A DNA stretch of 64,000 nucleotides from Phoronis australis (Eukaryota; Animalia; Phoronida). The notes under the pieces were generated by a model. It saw nothing but the letters and a program-made list of their open reading frames with translations, had not been told where the DNA came from and did not search any database. The position numbers and the translations under genes were made by a program. Positions within the stretch are counted from its first letter, which is position 1. Each line of letters starts with the position of its first letter. The stretch is taken from contig NMRA01000708.1 in NCBI GenBank assembly GCA_002633005.1, forward strand, positions 124,001 to 188,000. Direction: 5' to 3'. Shown here in pieces: positions 11,361 through 31,900 of the stretch.

Positions 11361-13553
11361 TTGATGACGTATACTACTCGTAGTTTGTTTCAAAATGATT
11401 TTCAAGTCTTAAAGATGCTCGAAAAGGTTTGGAAAATATTTTGTGAGTATTTCATGCTGCTTATGAGATGCATTTGGTACAATGTTAAGAAAAAGGGAGC
11501 GGCCTTGAACGACTTTATTTGTTGTTCACTCCACCAGTTTGCTCACCATGACAATGGCAACAGCAGTTTTGAGGTTGAGGTCCTACATGTACCTGAGAAA
11601 ATTAGTTGTCCTGTAAAATACGCTGAAGAGGACGTTCACCACAACAGCCGATGTTGTCGTGATAATAACGAAGTGGTAGTGGGTGTCACGGGCGCAATAG
11701 CTGCATCGTTCGCCCTTCACAGCGATGTGGCACTAAAAGAGCTTCCTCGCATTAGTTCAGTTTTGTTGAATGAAGTGTCTCTCACGTTTGGAGCAGACAA
11801 ACAAAATGGCGACGACATCTCGGCAGCGGAAGTCCACGGACAGGAATGGGCCAAAACCCTAGATGACAAAGATACCAAGGCCCTAGTTCCTGCTAATGAT
11901 AGAGTCCCACATGACATCCTTGCAATGGGTGACCAACGACATGCATTGTCCCAAACATTTAATAGGAAAGACGCTAAACTGGCGCTGCTTGATCTGGTTG
12001 ATGTAATATTGCTACCTCAAGAAGATTACATATCGACTATGGTTGACCAGTCTACTGAAATGATTGTTCCAATTCCCGCGCCACCCGAACTCCCGATAGT
12101 TCCTTTCAGTACTGACACCAAGAAGTTCGAAAACACGTGTAAAGAAGTAGGTGCAATTAAACCGGCCCAAGGCGTAGACGTGGGACAGAGCGAGGTTCAA
12201 CCTGACACAATTAACCTTTCCAATAATACTGACTCTGATGATGAGAATCACTGTGGCACTCCAGGGTGTTATGAGAGTGACAAGGCGTCAATGACTGCCT
12301 ATAGAACAGTCTCTGGAACGGTGGACTCTAACCAAGACAGAGATGTCAAAATGCTTGGTTTTATTGAAAAAGCCCTGTTGAGTGAAATGTGCAAGACCGT
12401 TGGGGTGAACAAAGTTCATAGAGATGTCATCATGGCAGTGGAATCCCAACAACATGAATCAGTCCAAATGGCTCACCGGAGGGATGCCAAACAGGTCCTG
12501 CTCCCTTTACTTGGATCAATAAAACCGCCAAGGGATGACGTTATAAGTTTGCATGACCAAGTCACTGAAATGGGCACTTCTATTCCCATTCGCTCCGAAC
12601 TCCCGATTGGACAGCATATCTCAGAGAATATATACGTACAACACGGGACACTCAAAACAGTCCCAGATCTAGAGGGCAAGCTTTCAACTCCCACTGTAGA
12701 AGAAGCTGAAGGGACACTCAAACCAGTCTTACATCGACAGGACACGCTTTGCACTTCATCTGAAGAAGATGATGACTCGACGTTCAAATCAGTCCTTGAT
12801 CTAGAAGATACTCTTTCTACTTCATCCGTAGAAGAATATGGCGGGACAATGAAGCCAGTCCTATATCTAGAGGACACGCGTTCCACTTCCTCTTTAGGAG
12901 AATATTACGGGACAATCAAGACAGTCCTGTATCTAGATGGCACGCTTTCAATTTTATCTGTCGGTGAATACGACGGGACACTCAATCCAGCCTTATATCT
13001 CGAGGAAACGCTTTCCACTTCATCTGTAGGAGAATATGACGGGACAATCAACCCAGTCCTTGATCTAGAGGACACGTTTTCTGTTTCATCTGCAGAAGAT
13101 GACGGGACACTCAAACCACTCCTAGATATAGATGACACACTTTCCATTTCATCTGTAGAAGAAGATGGCGGGACACTAAAACCAGTCTCATATCTTGAGG
13201 ACACGTCATCCACTTCCTCTATGGAAGATGAAGACGATGAACTATTAATGAGAGACGAATGTTACAACCAATGCGTAATGTCAGTTGTTGAACAAGTCGT
13301 CAACGAATTTTTCATGTTTGACGAGTCTAGCGAAGAGGACAGCGGTTCTGGGTACACTGGCGTTACAAACATGATAGAGCCGCCAAGTAACAATGCCTTG
13401 GACATGATGATGGATAGCCAAGTGGAAACCAAGCAATTTTCTTGGCAAAGAATTAAGCTGATGCGCTTCAAAAGAAAAAAATCAAGAAATAGTGGCTTTT
13501 TACAAGTTTGCGCGAGACTTATCTGTTGTGGAGTTCCGAAAACAGAAGACTGA
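11361..13553 (+). CDS. Intronless acidic repeat protein of unknown function (730 aa; first ATG at 11364)
   Basis: 2.2-kb uninterrupted ORF in AT-rich DNA; nine 22-aa repeats, a larger internal duplication and a basic, Cys-containing C-terminus. Confidence 0.7.
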   Translation: MMTYTTRSLFQNDFQVLKMLEKVWKIFCEYFMLLMRCIWYNVKKKGAALNDFICCSLHQFAHHDNGNSSFEVEVLHVPEKISCPVKYAEEDVHHNSRCCRDNNEVVVGVTGAIAASFALHSDVALKELPRISSVLLNEVSLTFGADKQNGDDISAAEVHGQEWAKTLDDKDTKALVPANDRVPHDILAMGDQRHALSQTFNRKDAKLALLDLVDVILLPQEDYISTMVDQSTEMIVPIPAPPELPIVPFSTDTKKFENTCKEVGAIKPAQGVDVGQSEVQPDTINLSNNTDSDDENHCGTPGCYESDKASMTAYRTVSGTVDSNQDRDVKMLGFIEKALLSEMCKTVGVNKVHRDVIMAVESQQHESVQMAHRRDAKQVLLPLLGSIKPPRDDVISLHDQVTEMGTSIPIRSELPIGQHISENIYVQHGTLKTVPDLEGKLSTPTVEEAEGTLKPVLHRQDTLCTSSEEDDDSTFKSVLDLEDTLSTSSVEEYGGTMKPVLYLEDTRSTSSLGEYYGTIKTVLYLDGTLSILSVGEYDGTLNPALYLEETLSTSSVGEYDGTINPVLDLEDTFSVSSAEDDGTLKPLLDIDDTLSISSVEEDGGTLKPVSYLEDTSSTSSMEDEDDELLMRDECYNQCVMSVVEQVVNEFFMFDESSEEDSGSGYTGVTNMIEPPSNNALDMMMDSQVETKQFSWQRIKLMRFKRKKSRNSGFLQVCARLICCGVPKTED
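12645..13235 (+). repeat. Coding tandem repeat, 66-bp unit x9
   Basis: gggaca(c/a)t.aa-type unit starts at 12645, 12711, about 12778, 12843, 12909, 12975, 13041, 13104 and 13170; consensus GTLKPVLxLEDTLSTSSVEEYD. Confidence 0.9.
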
Positions 13554-15862: not shown

Positions 15863-17429
15863 CACAGGCGTCCTCAGGTTCTGATCGATCGTCCCCAAAA
15901 CACTGTATAATACTGCAAGGTATGACACTCCGGACTAGAAATTCTACGGGCGCTTCACTTCAGCCGTCCGTAGCAAACTCAAAACTCAATAAATTTACAC
16001 AAAACAGAGGTTCAACAAACCATTGAGGAATTGTTCTTTCTCCCAATACCATTTACGGTGCTGCCCCTACGCCACGGTGTCCTGCTCCACCGAGTTCATA
16101 AGAAATTCTTGGTCAAAGCACAAAAATGTTCCCAAAAAGTCCACGCATCGAGCCTCCTTGGACGGTTCGAGGTCAAGGACACTACAGAATTATCCGATGA
16201 GTTATGGATATACGGCAATTGCCGATTCATCACGGAAGGTTTAATATCTTTAATATCTCCAAATGCAATAATATTCATATCCACAGAAAACGTTCCCCCA
16301 TAATATACAATTACAGCCTACACAATGCTTCACTCAAATGCATTAATGAAGCCCCATACCTCGGGGTCACTTTCACCCATAATTTATCATGGAACACTCG
16401 TATCTAGACGCAATCAGCTCAAAGGCAAAAAACTCTTGGCTTCATTAAACGAAATCTCAGATACGCTCCTCGAAAAACAAAAGCCCTTGCCTACACTTCA
16501 CTTGTTGGACCAAAACTAGAATACTCCTCCTCTGTCTGGGACTCATCCACTCGTAAAACATTGAAAAAATAGAAATGATAGAGCAGCCAGGTTTGTTTTA
16601 AATGACCACTCAAGGTACTCATCCGTTTCATCCATGCTCAAAACTCTCAATTGGCCCACCCTCCAGGAAAGACGAGCTCAGAACAAACTATCCCTTCTGT
16701 ACAAGACCGTACATAACCTGGTTGCTATTCCTGACTCATACCTTCCACTCCTACAGACCTCCTGATCACCAAACTCCCACTCCCATACCTTTGAGAGATT
16801 ATACATCCGCACTGCATACTACCCAAACTCTTTCTTTCCATCTACCATTCTACTCTGGAATAGACTTCCATCTCATCAGAAACAATAGAAATATTCACAA
16901 GTCACATCAATCTTACACAGTAATCATTAAGACCTGTTTTATCTTGGCACTAACCAGCACTTCGTCTTATCGTTATTTTTCACAGTTCCATGCACCTTGG
17001 TTTTATACTAACAATGCGCCAACAAGTAAGGATGGATACCACGATCGTTTGTTGTATATAGGAAGAAGAAGAAGAAGAGGAAGGTTACGAATGGTCTAGA
17101 GTTATCAATGTCGTCACACTCCGTGACAAATCGGCAATTGCCATACTGTCCTTGACCTCGAACTGTCCACAGAGGCTTGAACATTTTTGTGCTTTGACTG
17201 CGAATTTGTTGCAATCTCGCTGGAGCAGGACACCGTGAATGGTATTGGGAGAAAGAACAATTGCTAATGGTTTGTTGAAACCTTGTTTTGTGTTACAAAT
17301 TTATTGGGTTTTGTGTTTGATGTAGAAGGCTGAAGTGAAGCACCTGTGGAATTTCTGGTCGGGAGTGTCATACCTTGTAGTATTATACATATAGTGTATT
17401 GGGGACGATCAGAAGCTGTGGACGCCTGT
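15863..17429. mobile_element. Foldback non-autonomous DNA element (CACAGGCGTC termini) interrupted by a LINE
   Basis: 15863-16236 is a gapped reverse complement of about 17120-17429; same termini as the short copy at 34625-34749. Confidence 0.8.
16242..17078 (+). mobile_element. 5'-truncated CR1/L2-group LINE 3' end
   Basis: Degraded RT C-terminal motifs (YLGVTF..NLSW, LGFIKRNL, AYTSLV.PKLEY, RAARFV, SFFP.T..LWN.LP); (GAA)n tail; TSD GGAAGGTT at 16234-16241 and 17079-17086. Confidence 0.85.
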
Positions 17430-20263: not shown

Positions 20264-23200
20264 ATGAATGACAGCGAAGAGATCAAACTTCTGCAAGAGA
20301 AAATATCACAGTTAGAAGATGAACTGAAAGACACTAAAGCTGAATTGTGCAGAACGAAGCGGAAACTGTCTCAAATAGAGGAAAAATATGAAAAGTCGGA
20401 CGCATACAATGAAGACTTGAGAAATGAAATTAAAAAGCTTAGCAGTCGACTGCATGAATATAGACAAGCAGAGCTCAGCAGAGACGATAAAATTACACAA
20501 ACTTATGAACCAGAATTTTCCGTCGATCGCGATTCACAAAGCTCAGCGGATGTTTTGTTGTCAAGTGCTGTAGTGCCACCTGTTGGTGAGACTGATGTTG
20601 AGCCGTCAGAGACTCGGACTCTTGCAGAGAGTCTGAAGGCAGCTGCAGAAACAGCGACGCATCAGTCGGGCTTTGTTTATGATGAAAACTATGGAATGTA
20701 TTATGATTATAACACAGGCTACTACTATGATCCAGTAAGTGTTATCTTGGGTTAAAGGTTATGTGCGACCTTATCGACAAGTCCGCATATTTGCTCATAT
20801 TCCTACCAAACCATTGATTTGAACTGAGTAAAAGTAAATATTTTCTGAAAGTACAAAGCCTACAGAATAATTATACCAGTTTGCCATTACATAACCAAAT
20901 CTTTTTAGTAAAGTTTAGCTAAGAAAGAAAAGCACATCCACTGTAAAACAACACTATCGATGACACCGCCAAATTTTGTTTCAATTTAAGTAATTCAATA
21001 TGAAAGCTCAGAATTATTCTTAAGTTTTTTTAAATTATTGGTTTGTTTTTGCTTTTCTTCAACTTTTGGGTTTATATAAAAATCAAAGAAGTCTAATTTT
21101 TGGTAGCATGCAAAAGTGGAACATAGCAATTCTCAACAGCATTTTAGAGAACTGCATAAGGCGTATTATAGTACATGAAAGTTCAAGGAGGCAGTGTGGC
21201 CTGGTGCGATAGGTGCCCGCTTTCTTTACTCAAGGCCGGGGGTTCGAGTCCAACTGGGTCACACTGCTAGACCCTTGAGTCGCGTTTCTAGCTCCTCAGC
21301 TTGGTTTTCACTACATATTAATAAAGCATAAAAATGGCTCCAGGTGATTAGTGCACTGGGCCCACCTGAGCGGACTGCACACATGTTGTACCAGACTGCC
21401 TGCTGTTATTTTTTATAGGAAAGTTTCACATGACTCTGATGGTCCATTTCTGAGATAGGAATCTCCAAGGTTTGCCAGATTTAGACATTTTTCGAGGGCG
21501 GTCCTTTCAAACCTTAAAGGGACATTGACGGAATTATAGACATCCTGCTCAACGTTTTGTGACATGGATTATTTATTCAGGAAAATGCTGCTTATATCTC
21601 TTTGTGCATAGATGCTGTATATTGCTTTTGATGTGCTTCGATGCACTGTAAAAGGCATTACACTGATGTGCCAATGAAGTGGGTCATGGGTGCATTCAAT
21701 GAGGAACCCTGTAACATAGTTATTTATTCTTCCTTAAAATACAGCAAGACTTATTTTTGGACTACTTTTGCCTTGACCTCTGATGATACATGTACCAACT
21801 GAAGCAAATTGAAATGAAAAAGTGGCTTTGGATGCAAATTCTTCTCGATGCTGGCTGTGATTTAAATTTCAATTGCATGCCAGGCTCGTAAATGAAAATT
21901 GATTCATAACCTTAGTTTGTGAATTTCAGAAAAAGTGCCTTTACTACGACTCAAATTCTGGGATATATTACCGTTTCAACCAGAGCACCAATGAGTATGA
22001 ATACCACTCGCAGATTGACCTGTCGCAGTACAATTTCTATGACAACGCTAGTGATAATCAGCCAATGGAAACGGAGAGAGCTCATAAGGAACTCAAGAGG
22101 AAGAAAAAAGATAAGCATAGAGATGTAAGTTTTAAAGGCAGACTAGACCAGTCTGTTGATTGGAGTTGATGTAAAAAGTTTTTCACAACTTAAACTTCAT
22201 GTACATTCAGGGCTTGCTGCGAGGCATAACGTCGACTCGCCAAGTGGGACCTGGCGTGTGAAATAGCAACTTTTTGATTAAAGCCACATGGCATTACAAT
22301 ATCTGGTCTTGACCTGTTTCCTACTTAGATAAGAAGTGGTTTTTGGTCTTGTGAATAACTGACAATGTGGTTATTTCTTGAGCAGTGATGAACTTTCAGT
22401 TCCACCCAAGCTCATAAATCATTTGTAATTCGACTGAGGGACAAGTTCAGGCAAGTTTTATTAGTGTTTAGGTCTGAACCAAAAGTGAGTTTTCATGAAA
22501 AATGTCAAGTTCATAGCAGCTTTAAAAATATACTATTTTATGGTTGTTTTGTTGTATCACTTTTTACACTGCATAGTTTGGAAATAAACTACCTTTCTTT
22601 TTTGAATTAGGAGGAAAGTTTGGCGGATATTACGGACGCGCTGTCAAATTTAAACATACAACAGTTGCGACAGAATGCAATAGGTACGTAAACTTGACAA
22701 GTCATCTTATTTCCAGAAGAAACTCAAGAAATGTATTCGGAAGGAATCTCTTCTAAGTGCAAGTGACCATTTGGTTCCAAAAGAAGTTCCGAAAAACCTC
22801 AAGCCAATGAGTGACGGAACGGACAAATTTGTCGAAGAATTTGACTCGGATAGCGAACCGGAAGAAGTTGATACAACAGCTGCTGAAAACATTGAGGTAG
22901 TGACAGATGGTCTCCAAGGAAATGGTTCCCGTGGCAACAGTCCAGAGGAGAGTGACATGGAGGAGGGAGAGTTGTCTGACTCATCGTCGTCTAGTAGCGA
23001 AGTGACATCTGAAGGGGACTACGAGAGTGAAGGTTAACGACGCTAGATCTTACCTGTTCAGCCAGCTTGGCACTGACTTGATTACACAATAGATGGCGCT
23101 TATAGTCACACTACTCTTAAGACAGGTTTTACAAATAAATTAATTGTCAGGGACCTGCAGTATTCCAAGATGGGAGTGGGTGACATTTGATACCCTTACT

Positions 23201-26200
23201 AGTGTGTAAGCAATGTACTGCTCGGTATATGGTATCAATCATTGTAGACCTGTTTTGATCTCAGACATTGTGGAACAACGCAGAACAGTATAAACCTTTA
23301 TTCGGTTAACTCATCTTGCTCCGTTATGAAAGGCAGGATGTTCTCGCTGACGGCATTCTTTTCTCGCAAAATTTTTGTCCTAGGTTTGTTTCTCATGCGC
23401 CAACTTTTAATTTCCTGATAAACTCTAATTCACTTTTTGGTCGTAATGCGGATTATTTCTGTGGCAACTAATCAGTTATTTTATTCAACTTTTTATGTTT
23501 AATTCAGGTGCTATTGATGCTAGGTTCAGAAAAAATGTCAACTTTTATTGTTAATGAAACATTAACTTTTTGGTTATCATAAGTTACGGTCATACAGTTA
23601 TGACTTTTTACCAGTCACATTCCAGTTGTACACAGACGTTTGGATAATACTAGCGAAGCGTTTGGTAACTCCTGCCCCTAGAAAGTGAATTGAATTGTGG
23701 TCCATGAGACAAGAAATATGTTACTGTCAGAACAAGTTGTAGTTCCTTAGGAAGAAAATGCAGTTCTTAAGAAAAGAACGCTGTTAGTGAGAATGCCTTT
23801 GCAGTTCGGGAGGGTGGAACACTGATTATGTTAATGAATTATGTTTGAAGCTGCTGCAGCCCGTGTTTGCATGAGATGGTCAGTTTTGCGCCCTCTTTCA
23901 GGAAGTTCAGCCGTGCATTATCCTCCGTGCATCCGAGTGATAGTTCAGAAATCTGACACTCTTGACGAGGGGACGCTGTTCATCTTTACGTGCACAGGTG
24001 CAACTGTCGGCAGAGAGAACAACATGGGCCATGCAGTATTGGTACCAGATATGAACGTCAGCAAGGTTAGTTTTGTTACTGAATTGCTGTTGCCGCTGTA
24101 ATTTTTTAGTGCTTTGATGCCCTGAGCTATGATAACTGAGGGCCAGGGGAACAAGAATTGCTGATGGATGGTACATTTACACTTCCTTATTAAAGTCACA
24201 ATCACATTCAAATTTTTAATGGACTTTAACTTCATAATGCTCTAGGTAATGTACTTAGAAGTGTGTAATAGTGTGTTGTGAGTGAGTTTTGTCTCACTGT
24301 CTTGTGTTTCAGATGCACTGCTCCTTGAGTTACGATGATGAAGCCAAAAAGTATATGCTGAAGGACCATGCTAGCCAAAATGGAACTTTCGTCAACTCTG
24401 TGCGAATTTCAGAGGTGAGAAATGATGCATCAATTTCTTTAACTCTGTGGTACAATGTAACAAGTCAACGTAATTATAACTCTTAGATTTTCACTTGTTT
24501 CCCTTATTTTTGTGATATATGTAGATGTGGTCAAACTTATAAGTTCCTGTCTCACTTTTCACTGGCCCTTGAAATAGGTGGAAATAGATCTTTATAGTGT
24601 CACACATGCTATTTCGTTGCATCTATCGTAAGCATGTGCAAAAATCTTAAAAGGGTATCAACAACTGAAGGGTTCTAGGATGGCCAGGTGGTGGGCGGGG
24701 GCATCACTCAACAACCACAGGGTCTTCAGGGCTTGGAATTTTCCGCGGAAACGCGGATTTCCATTTTTTTCAAATGTGCTTTCCGCTTTTTTATAATATT
24801 TCCGCGTAAAAAATCGGATTTGATATAAAATTTCCGCGGCAAATTCCTTTCTTACCGCGGCGTTGCAGACGACGTTCACCTCGAAAAGCGGAAGTTGCTC
24901 TTTATGTTCGGAGGAACGTAAATTGTCAACATTGCCGGGGCATCTGGGATAGCGTGGTGTGATTTTCAATGGCGTCTCGTGTTATTGTTAAGCGTGGCGA
25001 CAAATACTACCGCTGTGCAGCCAAAAATGTGTGGGTTGGGAGTAGACGGGCGAGCTAAAAGGACGCAGATGCATGCTACTGATGGTGGTAACGTTTTTTT
25101 TCTTTTTTTTTTAAGTCCTCCCGATTTTTGTCGGGGAAAGGTTCACATTGACCAGTTCTAGGCTGGTTATCGGGCGATGATTTGGGCTGTAAAAGTTTCA
25201 AAGTTTCCGCGTTTTTTGTCATTGGTCATTCCAAGCCCTGGGGTCTTGCTTTAGTTGGATTCTTCTTTTTGATAGAATCATGAGTGTGAGGTAGTTTGGT
25301 AACAACTGACATCAAGAAATAGATAATTAGGTCAACATTTCACCCCTTCCCAAACTGAATCAAGCTTCCCCAAATTATGTTTAATGTAACATTGGCTCGC
25401 AGTGGCAGTTTTTAATTGAGTGATTTAGGATCAAGGTAGGATGCTTCGACCCTTACAAACCTCTACACGGTTTTCAGCCAAAGGTGATGAGTGAGCCGTG
25501 GCCAATTCAACACGATGACGTCATCACCATAGGTGGAACCTCTCTACTCTGTCACATTCACCCCGGTACAGAGACGTGTGATGGTTGTGAGCCAGGTCAG
25601 GTGCAAGCTAAGTTGGCCCAGCAACAACCTGCTAGAGGTTAGTCATTTAAAGGCAGTACAGTGATAGGCACAGTTGCCAAATTTTTGCCTCAAACGATTC
25701 TAGTGAGCAACGGTAAATCTTGACTTTAAAAAGATTCTATCTACGTGAAATTTTTGATAATTCGAAGGGATTTTTTTGTGTCGTGGTGAGGGGAATTTTG
25801 TGTGATTACTCAATGTTTTTCACATTAGCATGAGCTCAATATCCAACCACCAAATGGAGGCTTCACAGGTTCTGATCATGTGAGGCAATTCTGATAATTA
25901 CGACTAAATTACATTATTTGCTGCCAGGACCTACTGGTTAACAGAACATGAAATTTATTGTTAATTATACTTGGTCACATCTCCAGTGATGGCTGCATCA
26001 TTTCTGCTGCAGACATTGTTATTTTGTCAAGAGAGGAAAAAGAGAAACTAAGAAGGAAAGAGTTGAAGAATATTAGGAAGAAATATGGACTGCAGGTAGG
26101 ATATTTAACACGACTAGCATCGCAATCAGTTAGTTTTTACAGTATCACACTTCTCCATTCGCCCTCTGCAGTAGAGTTATCTCCCTTGTACTAGTACTAA

Positions 26201-28743
26201 ATACCATTGGGATACCTGGTGTCGGGTAATCACTGAATGACAGGTTAAGAATGGCAGCCTCCTTTGAATGGCGTATAGAAAGGTCTATATGGGGTACTGC
26301 AGAGGCACGTCTTTATTTTGGATTACTTGAACTTTGCTTACAAGTGTGTCCGTGGTATGTCCTCAAACCAGTAAACAACAATCAATATGTGGCTGAATAG
26401 TAGAACGGTAAAGTGTGTTAAGAGTACTTGTATTACGAAATTTACCTAAATGTTTAGGTACACCGATTACCTGGTGATAATTTCTTTGTGATGTGATCTA
26501 TGTGCATATTAAATTTAAGATTGGGATCTAAAATAAGGCCCAAGTACCTAAACTTGTCAACACACTTGATAGGGGAACTGTTGGTTGGAAGGGACCGTTT
26601 CTGTGTTTTTAATTGCTGGTGGGTTCCCAACAGCATGGACTTGGTTTTACTAACGTTAAGAGTGAGTTTATTTTGAACCAGTCAGTCATGGATAAAGGCT
26701 AGCTCATCGTTTAGAGAAGTTACAAGTTCTTTTACTGATCCAGCTGTGGATGCACAGTAATCGCAGTGTCATCAGCATGTGAAACTGGTACACTGTTGTG
26801 GAGGACAGTAGGGAGACTATTAGCAAAAATAGTTAATAGAGGGCCTAGAATGAAACCCTGATGTACGCCCGTGATAACAATTGAGTAGTCAGAAAGTTGA
26901 CAACGGACAGATCCGACTACCAGTGTGGGATGTGCCCCCTAGTGGCAGTTTTATCTTTTTTACGTTTACCTCTGTATCTTCAAAAGTCCTCAACGAATTG
27001 GAATATAGGCATCTATTAGCGAGATGACGCTAACACCTAGTTAATAGCTTTCTGTTAAAGAAATGATGGCATGTTCCCGTTTTTGGATAGATTTGACATC
27101 TTTTGCCACTATCTTGTGGCCGTTTTTATGATACAAATAAACAACCCGAGAAGCACACCGTTTGCTGTGCATTCATGAGCACATTTCAACTCTCCTCGTT
27201 GCTCTTGCATTCTATTGTACACATCATATCATCACTGGCTGGACCTCATGGGTCATGTCAATCAGATGCTGTATGTTAATAAACCAACAAAACAGCAAAA
27301 TAAAACATAAATAACTAAAACCACGCACACAGTGTCACCCAACTGCTGTACAATTATTAGGTGTTACGGGTAGCTTCAGAACTAGGCTGAATACTATTTG
27401 CTTGCTTGTTTTCTAACCAATTGGTGTTTCATTATTATCCATGTTATATTCCATCCCAGGGTGACCCCTATTTAAAGAATGAAAAGCTGCCCTCTGGAGG
27501 AACATCTTATGAAGACAAAGCTGAGGAGAGGAGAAGAACAGTTGGCAGTGATAACCCTTATCAAAGGGATGATGCACCGGCCTCTGTGGACATGTAAGGC
27601 TACACTGATGGATTATTAATCTGTATTTTCTTATACTGATGATGTCAAACAGTCACATCCTAAGTTAAGCCATGTACAGCATCATCTTTGGAAACTTTTT
27701 TTTCTGGAATTCTGAAAACTGATGAATTAAGCATTATTCACTGTCGCTGTTTATCCCAGACTGCAGTTGCAGGGCTGAAGTTAGTTCCGTGCTAATCACT
27801 TTCTTTGAAATATTTTTACCTGGTGTACATTTTCGTTGTGACAAGTTAGTGTTCCTTATTTTGCCTGATGTCTCTTTGATGCCACCATATGCTGCGTGTT
27901 TAGTTTTCTGTTCCCTTTTGCATCTGGGGTATTCTTGTCTTCCACAGGGCGATATCCTCAACCAACCTAGGTCACAAAATGATGGAGAAGATGGGCTGGA
28001 AGGCTGGAGAATCTCTGGGCAAGGGAGATATGGGAATCAAGGAGCCGGTAAGTTGGAAAGATTTCTGTTTATTTCACCTGCACTGTGTTGTATACTGGAG
28101 ACCAAATATCGCTGTGTCAAATTACTAAAGCAATTGGCTTGACTCCCCACTCCTGTGAGTCACGGTCTGTGATCTTCTGCTGTGTCTACTGAGTCTAGAT
28201 GCTGCATATAGGAGCCCGGTTCACAGCTTCTTTGGGTGCAGCCACACCTTGGGAATTGGAGGTCTGGTTTTTGTTTGTGTGGTTACTGGATAGGTCTCAC
28301 CATCTTTGCAGGTGCCAGTTCTTATCTTGTTTACCTTGTCTTACCTTGAATGCCAGTCTAATTTCAGTTAAAGTGTGTATTAGTGTATAATTTTCTATAT
28401 TGTCTTTTAATTGTAGATTAAAGTCAACATACGCTCCAATCAGCAAGCTGGGCTTGGGTCAGCTCATACAACAGAGCACTCCATAGACAACCCTCAACTG
28501 GCAAGGAAGGTAGAGAAATGGGTCAAAGTTCAGAAACGCTATCAAAAATTGCAGTCAAAAAGTGGTACTAATGTACCAGCTGGTGTATTTGAACCCATGG
28601 AGATCAATCAGAAGCTAAAGGTTAAAGGTCAAACCTGGGTCAAAGGTGGAGTAGAAAATGTGACTGTACCAGAGTCAGAAGAGACTGTTAAACCAAAAGT
28701 ACCAACAAAGAATTTTGAAAAAATATTTGAAGATCTTCCCTGA
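20264..28743 (+). CDS. AGGF1: Angiogenic factor with G-patch and FHA domains 1 orthologue (683 aa with exon 3b, 602 aa with exon 3a)
   Basis: Phase-consistent GT-AG exons: 20264-20734, 21930-22124, 22717-23032 (or 22611-22683), 23902-24065, 24313-24414, 25478-25637, 26013-26095, 27460-27593, 27948-28047, 28417-28743. Domains: coiled coil, OCRE (GMYYDYNTGYYYDP..LYYDSNSGIYY), FHA (TVGRE..VSKMH..DHASQNGTFVN), HIHPGTETCDGCEPGQV and G-patch (NLGHKMMEKMGWKAGESLGK..AGLG). Confidence 0.95.
21187..21380 (+). mobile_element. tRNA-derived SINE in an AGGF1 intron
   Basis: A-box-like TGGCCTGGTGCG and B box GGTTCGAGTCC, no complete cloverleaf, followed by a cccttgag body motif; right end approximate. Confidence 0.6.
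22611..22683 (+). CDS. AGGF1: Candidate alternative (mutually exclusive) AGGF1 exon 3a
   Basis: Acceptor cctttctttttttgaattag, donor AG|gtacgt, 73 nt, open as EESLADITDALSNLNIQQLRQNAI, same 0/1 phases as exon 3b. Confidence 0.65.
24727..25240. mobile_element. 514-bp MITE in an AGGF1 intron
   Basis: Perfect TIR cagggcttggaat / attccaagccctg; direct repeat GGGTCTT on both flanks. Confidence 0.85.
26465..26915 (-). mobile_element. Degraded LINE reverse-transcriptase fragment
   Basis: Minus-strand GVHQGFILGPLL, HADDT, LTLNVSKTKSMLLG and FRYLGLILDPNLKF motifs. Confidence 0.8.
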
Positions 28744-28943: not shown

Positions 28944-31900
28944 ACTGGTACCTCAAAATGCAAAAGAATCCACTTTCATGCACTGTCAACCGATAAGCAA
29001 TGCCATCCCTCACTCAGTCTTGCTTGGAAATGGTCCTAATACAAAATGTTTTACTATAGAGGATGTGCTTATTCCATAATATACATGTCATGTACAGGTA
29101 TTTACTATTTCCTTACCAAGGTCCTCACTGAAGTCAGACTGGCTAACTATCATGCCTCGCTTTGTCTTAGTGACAGGATCAACTCTGTCAATTCCATGCA
29201 CAAACGTGTCCTTGCACCGGGATGCTGTAGTCTTGTTTCTTTCTCAGCACTACCCGATGGCTTAACCATTGTGAGGCATATTTTGCCTAAAAGTTTCGGG
29301 CGTGTGTCGGATCCACCGTCTTCTTACCCACTACGCATAGTCTCTTACAACGGTTCTCTATTTTGAGAACCAATTTGATGCCTGTTATTCAGGGGAGAAA
29401 ATTGGTTCTCGAAAATGTGGGGCCCCTGTAGGTGTCTGTTATCCCACTTCAACACCGCTTTGAGACTGGGAATGACGTGATCATCCATTCTTAATGTCAA
29501 GCTCTTTAAACTCTTGAACTCTTTCTTTTTGTTTGAATGGATTACTAACCGAAGCCAATGCCCTTTCTTCAAATAGCCTGGCACTTTGCAGTTTTCCACT
29601 CCAGGGAAAACAGAAAATTATCAATAACATGACGTGAACTTTTCTTCCCGTCTGTGTGTGCTGCATGTCAATCAGGTCAACCTCCATCCAGGAACACAGA
29701 CTGCTGTCCATAATACATGGTAGATGTAGACAGCAGGGACGAGGCTCACTCAACACGTTCTAGGAAATTCTTTGACAACAGCCTATCTTCATTGGTATAG
29801 CCGTTTACAGTTAGTACAGTAATAATCAACATCTAAAGTAACCCAGCCAGTCGTCTTACCGAATTGGTGGGTAACCAGTCCTTACAGCCACTACTGTTAA
29901 TCATTATACGGCCAATGTAAGGTCTACGGCAAACACTGGAAAACGTACCCATATCAAATATCTTATCTCGCAGCAATGTTTTTTTTTTCATAAGTTCTTC
30001 AGTCCAAGCTGGTAACCTTCGAAACTCACAGGCACATGTCGTTTAACCACTAGCCATGCTGTTTAATTTTGGCTAGGTGAGAGTCCGTGCAGACTGAGAC
30101 CTTGCGTACATCGGACAATATTTCGTATACAGATGAGACACTGGAGTTTGTAATGTATGATGGGTGTCATGGACACTCGTATGCTGCTCTTGAGGCAGCG
30201 GCAGCTTTTGGTGGTACACAAGCCTGTACTTTTACACTTCTTTTTGGGTTACCAAAACGAGCAGCTTCCCCCAATGGCGATGTCTTGTCCATTTAACTCC
30301 CGGTGGTTCTCTGCTAATTCACCTACTTTGAAGCATCATTTCAAGTCTTACCATATTTTATTGCATTCGAGGCCAGAGTATTGGGTAGCATGACAACAGT
30401 TTTTGGAGTCCAGGGTAGACAGTGTGAATGTGGGCTCACACTTAACCGATACAAATGCGAGTTTCATTTGACAACGATAACCCACATTGTGTTCTTGGCA
30501 CGACGTAAGTAAGACGGGCTTTAGTAAATTGGACAGCAAAATTGAGGCGATAACAAGCGCAAGACAGTACGTGGATGAGTGAGGTCAGATCCTTTCTGGG
30601 ACTGGTTCTGTTCCCTTCGAGATTCTTACCCGATTATTCGGCAGTCTCAGAGCTTTTTCGTGGGCTGACCAGGAAGGTATAGGTATTTACTTGGGGCGCA
30701 ACCCAAGAGGTCGCGTTTACAAAGCTGAAGGAGATGATAACGTCGACTGAGACATGGGCTCATTTCCGGAGTTTTAATTTTTTAAATTTTTAGTATGAAA
30801 TATTCAGTACAATGAATATACATACAAAGAAAGTGCCAAGAGGCATTGTATCTGGGTTAAATAAGTACAAAGAAATATATACTCTGCAACATATTCGTGG
30901 CGTACCCCGGATAAAATAGCGGATTACGATAAATACAATTATATACAAAAACATAAATTTAGAAAAAACAGACAAACTCTGTTAACTATTTTTGGACTGG
31001 TATTTAATCTTCAAAGACTTCATGCAGTTGTAGGCCCCCACAGGCTGTTGATATTATCATTCTGTAGATATCAGACCCATATGGCTAGAGGCGATAATAT
31101 TAATTTTTAAAATTTCGTTTTGAAAGTTTTTTAAATAGCATATTTGATTAGGTCAAGAAACGTGCGCCTGGTTCAGGTTTTTGAATTTTGAAAATCGAAT
31201 GCAAACCAATTCAGCGACTTCGCCAAACTTTTGCCCTCTCCCTTTCTTATCTCCACCACCTCCCCCCATTCTCCGGATGTCGCCAATTTAGAAACACTTC
31301 CTCACGCCCGCCCGGCACAAGTGGGAGCACGGTTTAACTATGACGCCTGCAAATTTTTGGGAGGAGGGGGCAAGGCCCGCGCTTCTTACGTCCTTGCATT
31401 TACGTGTAAATGGTAGCTTTCTATAGGGATTTTGGTTTTATCGAGAAGGGTGCTACCCTTATACATGTACCTATCGATATGTCTCTCGCTTCATCGTATT
31501 ATGAGACTGGGGCATTCTAGTATACAGAAGACTGGCGAGCTAATATGTCAAACATTAATGAATACAAAAAAATGTTTTGGTGATTCGAGACAACGTGAAT
31601 TCGTCGGATGAAAATCAATAATTTCGCAAGAATTAATTCTGTATAACAATAAGAATAAATTTAGAGGCTACCTAACTGCCAATGACATTGCTATTACTAT
31701 ACGGGTAGCATAACACTTTTGCGAAGGTTAAATTCGTTTTTATTTTATAGCAATAACATGTATAAATATATTAAACGGTTATCCACATGGGACCACATCA
31801 ATAATTACCGAAATGAAAATGTCATACTTACGGATCGTTCGAACCTATATTTGCGAATCCCATCATGACGTAGAGAAAACACCATGAAGTACAACTGAAA

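Follow-up and report, generated by a model that had tools for sequence, protein, structure and literature searches.

Within the 64,000-nucleotide stretch of the Phoronis australis genome analyzed here (hereafter, the window), the gene for the RNA-binding protein AGGF1 contains two neighboring exons of quite unlike content, 3a and 3b, and the question arises whether they are included in place of one another and what kind of protein each choice would produce. A preceding sequence-only reading had proposed that 3a carries a nuclear export signal and 3b a basic, EEGEL-containing nuclear module, so that splicing would switch AGGF1 between the cytoplasm and the nucleus. We addressed this proposal using RNA reads, homologous proteins and loci, and predicted structures.

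The AGGF1 gene comprises ten exons on the + strand with coding region 20264-28743 (Table 1), and its model has open frames without internal stop of 602 aa with 3a and 683 aa with 3b. RNA reads with loose ends connect the end of exon 1 with 21930; reads also place exon 5 and the beginning of exon 6, and the remainder of exons 5-10 was deduced from open frames and GT/AG sites. Pfam matched OCRE on exons 1-2 of the window and OCRE, FHA and G-patch, in this order, on the homologs. No Pfam family matched exon 3a or exon 3b, Atlas gave no usable match to the 3a region, and no solved AGGF1 structure was present among 21 structure matches. Among named proteins, Lingula anatina AGGF1 X2 comes closest (48% identity to the window model over 587 aa, 61% over 270 core residues), and in a quick tree the window sequence clusters with Lineus, Lingula and Owenia (SH-aLRT 94). 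By domain order and by the naming of its nearest relatives, the gene is thus assigned, at the level of sequence, as an AGGF1 ortholog; CG8079 is the ortholog in fly. Elsewhere in the window, a 730-codon open frame (11361-13553, + strand) encodes acidic, serine-rich repeats, ~22 residues each, arranged in an array, and broken frames at 16200-16900 (+), 26450-27000 (-) and 30440-30760, one of them inside an AGGF1 intron, presumably resemble fragments of retroelement reverse transcriptase, a likeness judged by eye.

Table 1. Positions of the AGGF1 exons and of predicted motifs in the window
Feature	Position	Strand	Content and evidence
Coding exon 1	20264..20734	+	Coiled coil and first half of OCRE; Pfam OCRE E 7e-7; homologs named AGGF1
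Exon 2, common to both forms	21930..22124	+	Second half of OCRE and basic KRKKK (22095-22109)
Alternative exon 3a	22611..22683	+	73 nt, phase 0 to 1; encodes a short amphipathic helix spaced like a PKI-type export signal; junction reads, homologous isoform segments
Predicted class 1a NES core in 3a	22620..22658	+	Anchors L-I-L-L-I, spacing 2-3-2-1; pattern match, conservation
Spacer, 3a donor to 3b acceptor	22684..22716	+	33 nt; candidate branch A 22697; sequence
Alternative exon 3b	22717..23032	+	316 nt, phase 0 to 1; opens with basic KKLKK (22717-22731), acidic/serine-rich linker; junction 23032>23902, depth step
EEGEL in 3b, predicted ARS2-recruitment motif	22960..22974	+	Consensus match
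Exon 4, acceptor common to 3a and 3b	23902..24065	+	FHA region begins; reads
Exons 5-10	24313-24414, 25478-25637, 26013-26095, 27460-27593, 27948-28047, 28417-28743	+	Remaining FHA, G-patch, stop

The geometry of the pair was re-derived from the sequence and coincides with what had been claimed: the coordinates, lengths (73 and 316 nt) and 33-nt spacer, the GT/AG sites, both peptides, the passage of either exon from phase 0 to phase 1, the TGA created by joining 3a with 3b, the TAA created by keeping the spacer, and the position of the candidate branch A at 22697, 13 nt past the 3a donor, from which 19 nt are left to the AG of 3b. Omission of both exons together shifts the frame as well. The nine other AGGF1 introns in the window range from 247 to 1364 nt. 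As to the idea that the short spacer enforces exclusivity, the entire spacer is 33 nt in the window and 30 nt in one arthropod-like locus (L020), which would keep donor-to-branch distance under 50 nt, but reaches 153 nt in another (L011), the branch points being candidates and an upstream one being possible for 3b; frameshift therefore appears to be the more general safeguard than steric exclusion. A search for docking-selector pairing near the exons, run without a control, returned 16 short inverted repeats and nothing convincing among them. Tandem duplicates are expected to be of similar length and homologous sequence, whereas 3a and 3b differ in both, their sequence unlikeness being judged by eye, without alignment.

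Three RNA runs with matching species label (~18-19% of each run) provided 71 reads, while a fourth run gave none; junctions were listed from three reads at two starts. The junctions foreseen from the sequence are present for 22124>22611 (3 reads, run X2), 22683>23902 (4, 1 and 1 reads across the three runs) and 23032>23902 (5, 4 and 0 reads), while 22124>22717 stays below the listing threshold and is deduced from run X1. There, depth rises from 0 to 3.00 exactly at 22717 (11-nt resolution), all four 3a reads proceed into exon 4, and a depth of about three reads over the 14 bases that close exon 2 is accompanied by zero at 22611. The bin depth of 3.00, not 2.18, rules out an acceptor at 22720. 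The three 3a reads of run X2 all begin at 22611 after exon 2 and one of them also joins 23902, meaning that a single read spans exon 2, 3a and exon 4. Seven reads reach the end of 3a and halt at the G it has in common with exon 4, six of them being found on exon 4 and one left unassigned; at this low depth none of the seven runs into the spacer or appears on 3b. None of the three runs shows any depth at 22695-22716, by which, at this low coverage, retention of the spacer is ruled out. Neither 22683>22717 (3a joined to 3b) nor 22124>23902 (both skipped) is among the junctions listed at this low depth and threshold of three reads at two starts. It is thus confirmed that both exons are spliced into mRNA in an either-or manner, and the two forms are, on few reads, similarly abundant (6 versus 9 junction reads into exon 4). 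Reads and conservation together rule out 3a as a chance pseudo-exon; the pseudo-exon control yielded one candidate only and is uninformative. A splicing switch between 3a and 3b is, in our estimate, nearly certain.

Some minor features of these reads are recorded in passing. In the intron ahead of exon 4 (23590-23850) X1 has a depth of ~2, probably due to one unspliced molecule, and at 22833-22834, 23985 and 24396 every covering read differs from the window, these probably being alleles of other individuals; the difference at 22834 replaces Glu by Lys in exon 3b.

The sequence-only reading had looked to related genomes for conservation, and peptide, phases and exon order turned out to be kept in relatives far more distant than those it had in mind. 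A search with exon 1 gave 13 proteins, isoform sets among them, and a profile search gave 150 representatives, of which 20 were looked up by name. RefSeq isoform pairs differing solely by this swap, with identical flanks, exist in a nemertean, a snail, a sawfly and a crinoid (Lineus X3 versus X1, Babylonia X2 versus X1, Cephus X3 versus X1 and Anneissia X2 versus X1), a short segment of 23-30 aa being exchanged for a long one of 53-242 aa with basic residues and an EEGE-type motif. Peptides of 3a type also occur in lophotrochozoans (Lingula, Owenia, Tubulanus, Haliotis, Mizuhopecten, Mercenaria), arthropods (Limulus, one beetle, two flies, one butterfly) and deuterostomes (Acanthaster, Anneissia, the goby Knipowitschia and the lizard Zootoca), the short form alone being recovered for most of these species. 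Exon 3b alone as a query matched 0 of 698 candidates, and the Lineus 3a-FHA region retrieved Lineus itself only. Lineus has in addition a third isoform, X2 (P0004), which contains the basic half of the long segment without export-like and EEGE motifs, and in the vertebrate-like P0028 the FHA region is apparently duplicated ahead of the usual one.

Only L011, L020 and L021 out of 24 loci span OCRE to FHA with introns, and since stop-rich six-frame translations gave the 3a profile scores of only ~6 bits, L011 and L020 were interpreted manually. In L011 the order is exon 2, 3a, 3b, exon 4, with both exons intact and passing from phase 0 to 1; in L020 the order is the same and 3b is intact with phase 0 to 1, while 3a is broken by a frameshift and stop. 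The 3a of this insect-like locus (L020:878-955, 78 nt) has good splice sites, is not in phase and finishes with a stop, reflecting decay, a poison exon or a mistake in the assembly. L021 has a 65-nt intron at that place, without 3a. On a quick tree of the shared C-terminal part, from which 6 long-form duplicates were left out, 3a-type and 3b-type proteins (26 and 53 rows) are interleaved, with 22 changes against a shuffled mean of 22, meaning that the types are scattered as isoforms would be, not as paralogs. Paralogy is ruled out by these unclustered labels and by the identical flanks within species. A separate observation concerns a clade of nine members (support 99; P0087, P0095, P0096, P0100, P0108, P0112, P0114, P0133 and P0139), which have compact EEGE-type linkers only and 3a type in 0 of 9; together with L021 (5380-5800, no room for 3a) they possibly represent non-bilaterian lineages that never had the exon. 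All 15 mammalian proteins inspected are of the long form with an acidic EEGEI linker, but all were drawn from a single 90% cluster of 222, in which a short isoform could not be contained. Overall, two unlike either-or exons between OCRE and FHA are, on comparison of these proteins and loci, conserved from insects to a lizard.

What then might exon 3a encode? Its five-anchor pattern arises in 0.5% of 100,000 shuffles of the 25-aa peptide, and no second match occurs within the correctly modelled N-terminal 390 residues. Six cases were recognized from isoform differences or from gene structure, independently of the motif (Lineus, Babylonia, Cephus, Anneissia, the window and L011), and in 6 of 6 each of the five anchors is hydrophobic, with a spacing of 2-3-2-1. 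A broader comparison covered 162 proteins, of which 59 were dropped for missing one of two landmarks and 103 were kept, two window models and same-species isoforms included and P0028, P0008 and P0148 excluded beforehand. These 103 fall into 23 with the five-anchor pattern only, 63 with the loose EEGE motif only, 2 with both and 15 with neither, counts that come from related proteins and so are not independent sampling; likewise among related proteins, the pattern occurs in 23 of the 38 without EEGE motif, against 0.2 in 1000 shuffles. The two proteins with both motifs (P0105 and P0154) combine a 3a core with a 3b-like EEGE segment behind it, reflecting either real co-inclusion via another donor or errors of gene models.

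Alignment was possible for 31 of 33 3a peptides tried, and as anchors 1-4 were partly selected by the pattern, the count for these is circular; anchor 0, which was not selected on, is hydrophobic in 26 of 31, and six of the seven core non-anchor positions are hydrophobic in 0 or 1 peptide. Acidic residues are common immediately before and after anchor 0. Behind the core the tail varies (R in 13 of 31, A in 15 of 31): about half of protostome 3a peptides have a second motif, R-x2-A-I/L-E, and in the lizard, goby and echinoderms the core is retained and the tail is missing. The distance from 3a to FHA is 12-88 residues, being 12-16 in most of the 31 peptides. AlphaFold models predict a helix at 245-258 in Lineus (anchors 249-261) and at 261-275 in the lizard (anchors 266-278), in both cases stopping just before anchor 3, with a confidence in 3a of 52-63 versus >90 for FHA. 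In class 1a signals the CRM1-bound peptide forms a helix that passes into a short strand, and matches to NES consensus include known false positives (Fung et al., 2017; PMC5358978). Exon 3a has in common with class 1a (PKI-type) signals the five hydrophobic anchors, and going by the low-confidence models it may also share a helix followed by an extended end in a flexible linker; it is unlike them in occupying a dedicated alternative exon and in having an extra conserved tail in protostomes, and it is known here by prediction from sequence. We consider it likely that 3a is a CRM1 export signal.

For exon 3b the previous assignment of a basic nuclear module required correction: 3b does begin with KKLKK, but KRKKK is not specific to it, lying in the shared exon 2. 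Since both forms have KRKKK, the 3a form would more likely be shuttling than purely cytoplasmic. The long exon has a basic cluster in all four named isoform pairs and at both L011 and L020. Its EEGEL, set in an acidic context, fits the consensus (E/D)(D/E)GE(L/I/V) of ARS2 recruitment, as given in two preprints (bioRxiv 10.1101/2023.07.25.550453; bioRxiv 10.1101/2022.01.19.476877) and catalogued in PMC10767929 as ELM class LIG_ARS2_EDGEI_1; binding to ARS2 is predicted. The likeness is to the ARS2-recruitment motif of ZFC3H1, ZC3H18, NCBP3, FLASH and PHAX, expected in an acidic disordered region. Of the 103 homologs, 31 match the strict consensus and 65 its loose form. At this position EEGEC is the reading in many arthropods, and ESGEL or ESGEI that in several molluscs (P0012-P0016, P0022, P0041, L020:1046-1060), variants outside the published consensus. 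AGGF1 is not named in the accessible portions of either preprint (bioRxiv 10.1101/2023.07.25.550453; 10.1101/2022.01.19.476877), and a literature search found no paper naming both AGGF1 and ARS2. Data on nucleocytoplasmic distribution are available from PMC4764573: in Xenopus oocytes AGGF1 (a 78 kDa contig, the size of the long form) is present at 14.2 nM in the nucleus versus 0.21 nM in the cytosol (~66-fold), and in HeLa it is absent from the CRM1+RanGTP eluate, being classed as ambiguous and of low abundance; the rows listed in a second supplement file of that paper contain no AGGF1. The Xenopus and HeLa rows fit a nuclear long form, both being given without isoform and silent on 3a.

Taken together, these observations suggest the following sequence of events. 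In the window species the 33-nt spacer would be too short for removal, precluding the joining of 3a and 3b, and a joined or double-skipped transcript would reach an early stop and be degraded. The helix of 3a would dock in the CRM1 groove through its five hydrophobic anchors, and the protein, having the shared KRKKK, would enter and leave the nucleus while residing mostly in the cytoplasm. The 3b form would dock on ARS2, a partner of the cap-binding complex, and serve in the nucleus as the splicing and DHX15 cofactor described from human cells. Accordingly worded as a whole, the swap is rather probably a bilaterian-wide choice between a CRM1-exported shuttling form and a nuclear ARS2-linked form of AGGF1, export and ARS2 binding being predicted.

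Each element of this scheme can be read differently. Regarding enforcement, exclusivity might be due mainly to decay of frameshifted joined transcripts or to regulators, the short spacer being a lineage-specific addition; the 153-nt spacer of L011 and the two proteins with both motifs speak for such a view, as does the survey of human clusters, in which steric interference accounts for 9% and lengths not divisible by three for 60% (PMC5740500), but the spacers of 33 nt (window) and 30 nt (L020) are both below the 50-nt donor-to-branch limit of the same source (PMC5740500), and the nine other introns of the window gene are at least 247 nt long; we hold this reading to be rather unlikely. With respect to 3a itself, either-or splicing may be real while the helix binds a non-CRM1 partner or packs with its R-x2-A-I/L tail on FHA and tunes it, the export-like spacing being that of an ordinary amphipathic helix. 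The tail is conserved in about half of the peptides, mostly 12-16 residues ahead of FHA, the second helix in the AlphaFold model of Lineus reaches the FHA start, and an R-x2-A-I/L-E tail would be superfluous for an NES. Against this, the lizard, goby and echinoderms lose the tail and keep the core, the last two anchors are placed at i and i+2, off helical periodicity, where the predicted helix ends, and low confidence in 3a beside >90 in FHA suggests no stable packing; we hold this explanation to be unlikely.

It is more improbable still that 3a is a short frame-restoring linker removing the basic ARS2-type segment, with ARS2-bound and ARS2-free AGGF1 both nuclear. Double skipping indeed shifts the frame, so that some exon of phase 0 to 1 is needed, KRKKK is common to both forms, and Lineus X2 arrives at a motif-free state through another route; a mere linker, though, would not hold five anchors at fixed spacing across phyla. 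The least probable view, to which we give very little weight, takes 3a for a regulatory or decaying exon of unproductive splicing devoid of a protein role, as the 3a of L020, frameshifted and stop-containing in spite of good splice sites and a 30-nt spacer, could imply; it has to be set against the open frame that 3a has in the window, at L011 and in all named proteins of 3a type, its share of the junction reads entering exon 4 (6 of 15), and its conservation at the amino-acid level.

To our knowledge, alternative exons common to insects, molluscs, echinoderms and vertebrates are uncommon. A conserved export isoform, if true, would offer a direct test of one gene serving two compartments, and the motif of 3b makes AGGF1 a candidate partner of ARS2, a partnership that would tie the cap-binding complex to a DHX15 activator. 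It is tentatively conceivable that the ancestral bilaterian AGGF1 already had two exons by which a CRM1 export signal could take the place of a module docking on ARS2, and that this switch persists unrecognized in mammals including humans; its mammalian survival, if true, would explain AGGF1 being both a nuclear splicing factor and an extranuclear angiogenic factor. Human and mouse AGGF1 have the same order of domains (OCRE, FHA, G-patch), the mammalian linkers inspected being of 3b type. According to the respective sources, the mammalian protein is nucleoplasmic (bioRxiv 10.64898/2026.06.30.735655), associated with paraspeckles and interacting with DHX15 (PMC10722200), and serves as a splicing factor and angiogenic factor (PMC13111387), while a recent survey of the G-patch family, as far as accessible, lists a single AGGF1 clone. 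The 3a exon is already present in automated RefSeq models of several species. In the accessible literature on human and mouse AGGF1 no 3a-type isoform or export signal was found, nor was a description of the switch found in the accessible full-text AGGF1 literature; the human survey of mutually exclusive exons (PMC5740500) yielded no AGGF1 in the accessible parts of its main text and 10 supplement files.

Alpha-tropomyosin is a well-known case of mutually exclusive exons with steric interference. The AGGF1 pair shares with the steric clusters described by Hatje et al. (2017; PMC5740500) adjacent exons, equal phases and frameshift on joining, and going by the candidate branch A its donor-to-branch distance in the window would be less than 50 nt. 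It is unlike those clusters in the fourfold difference in exon length and in the unlikeness of the products, so that 3a and 3b do not resemble a tandem duplication of one structural element: the pair swaps two unrelated short motifs, not two copies of one exon.
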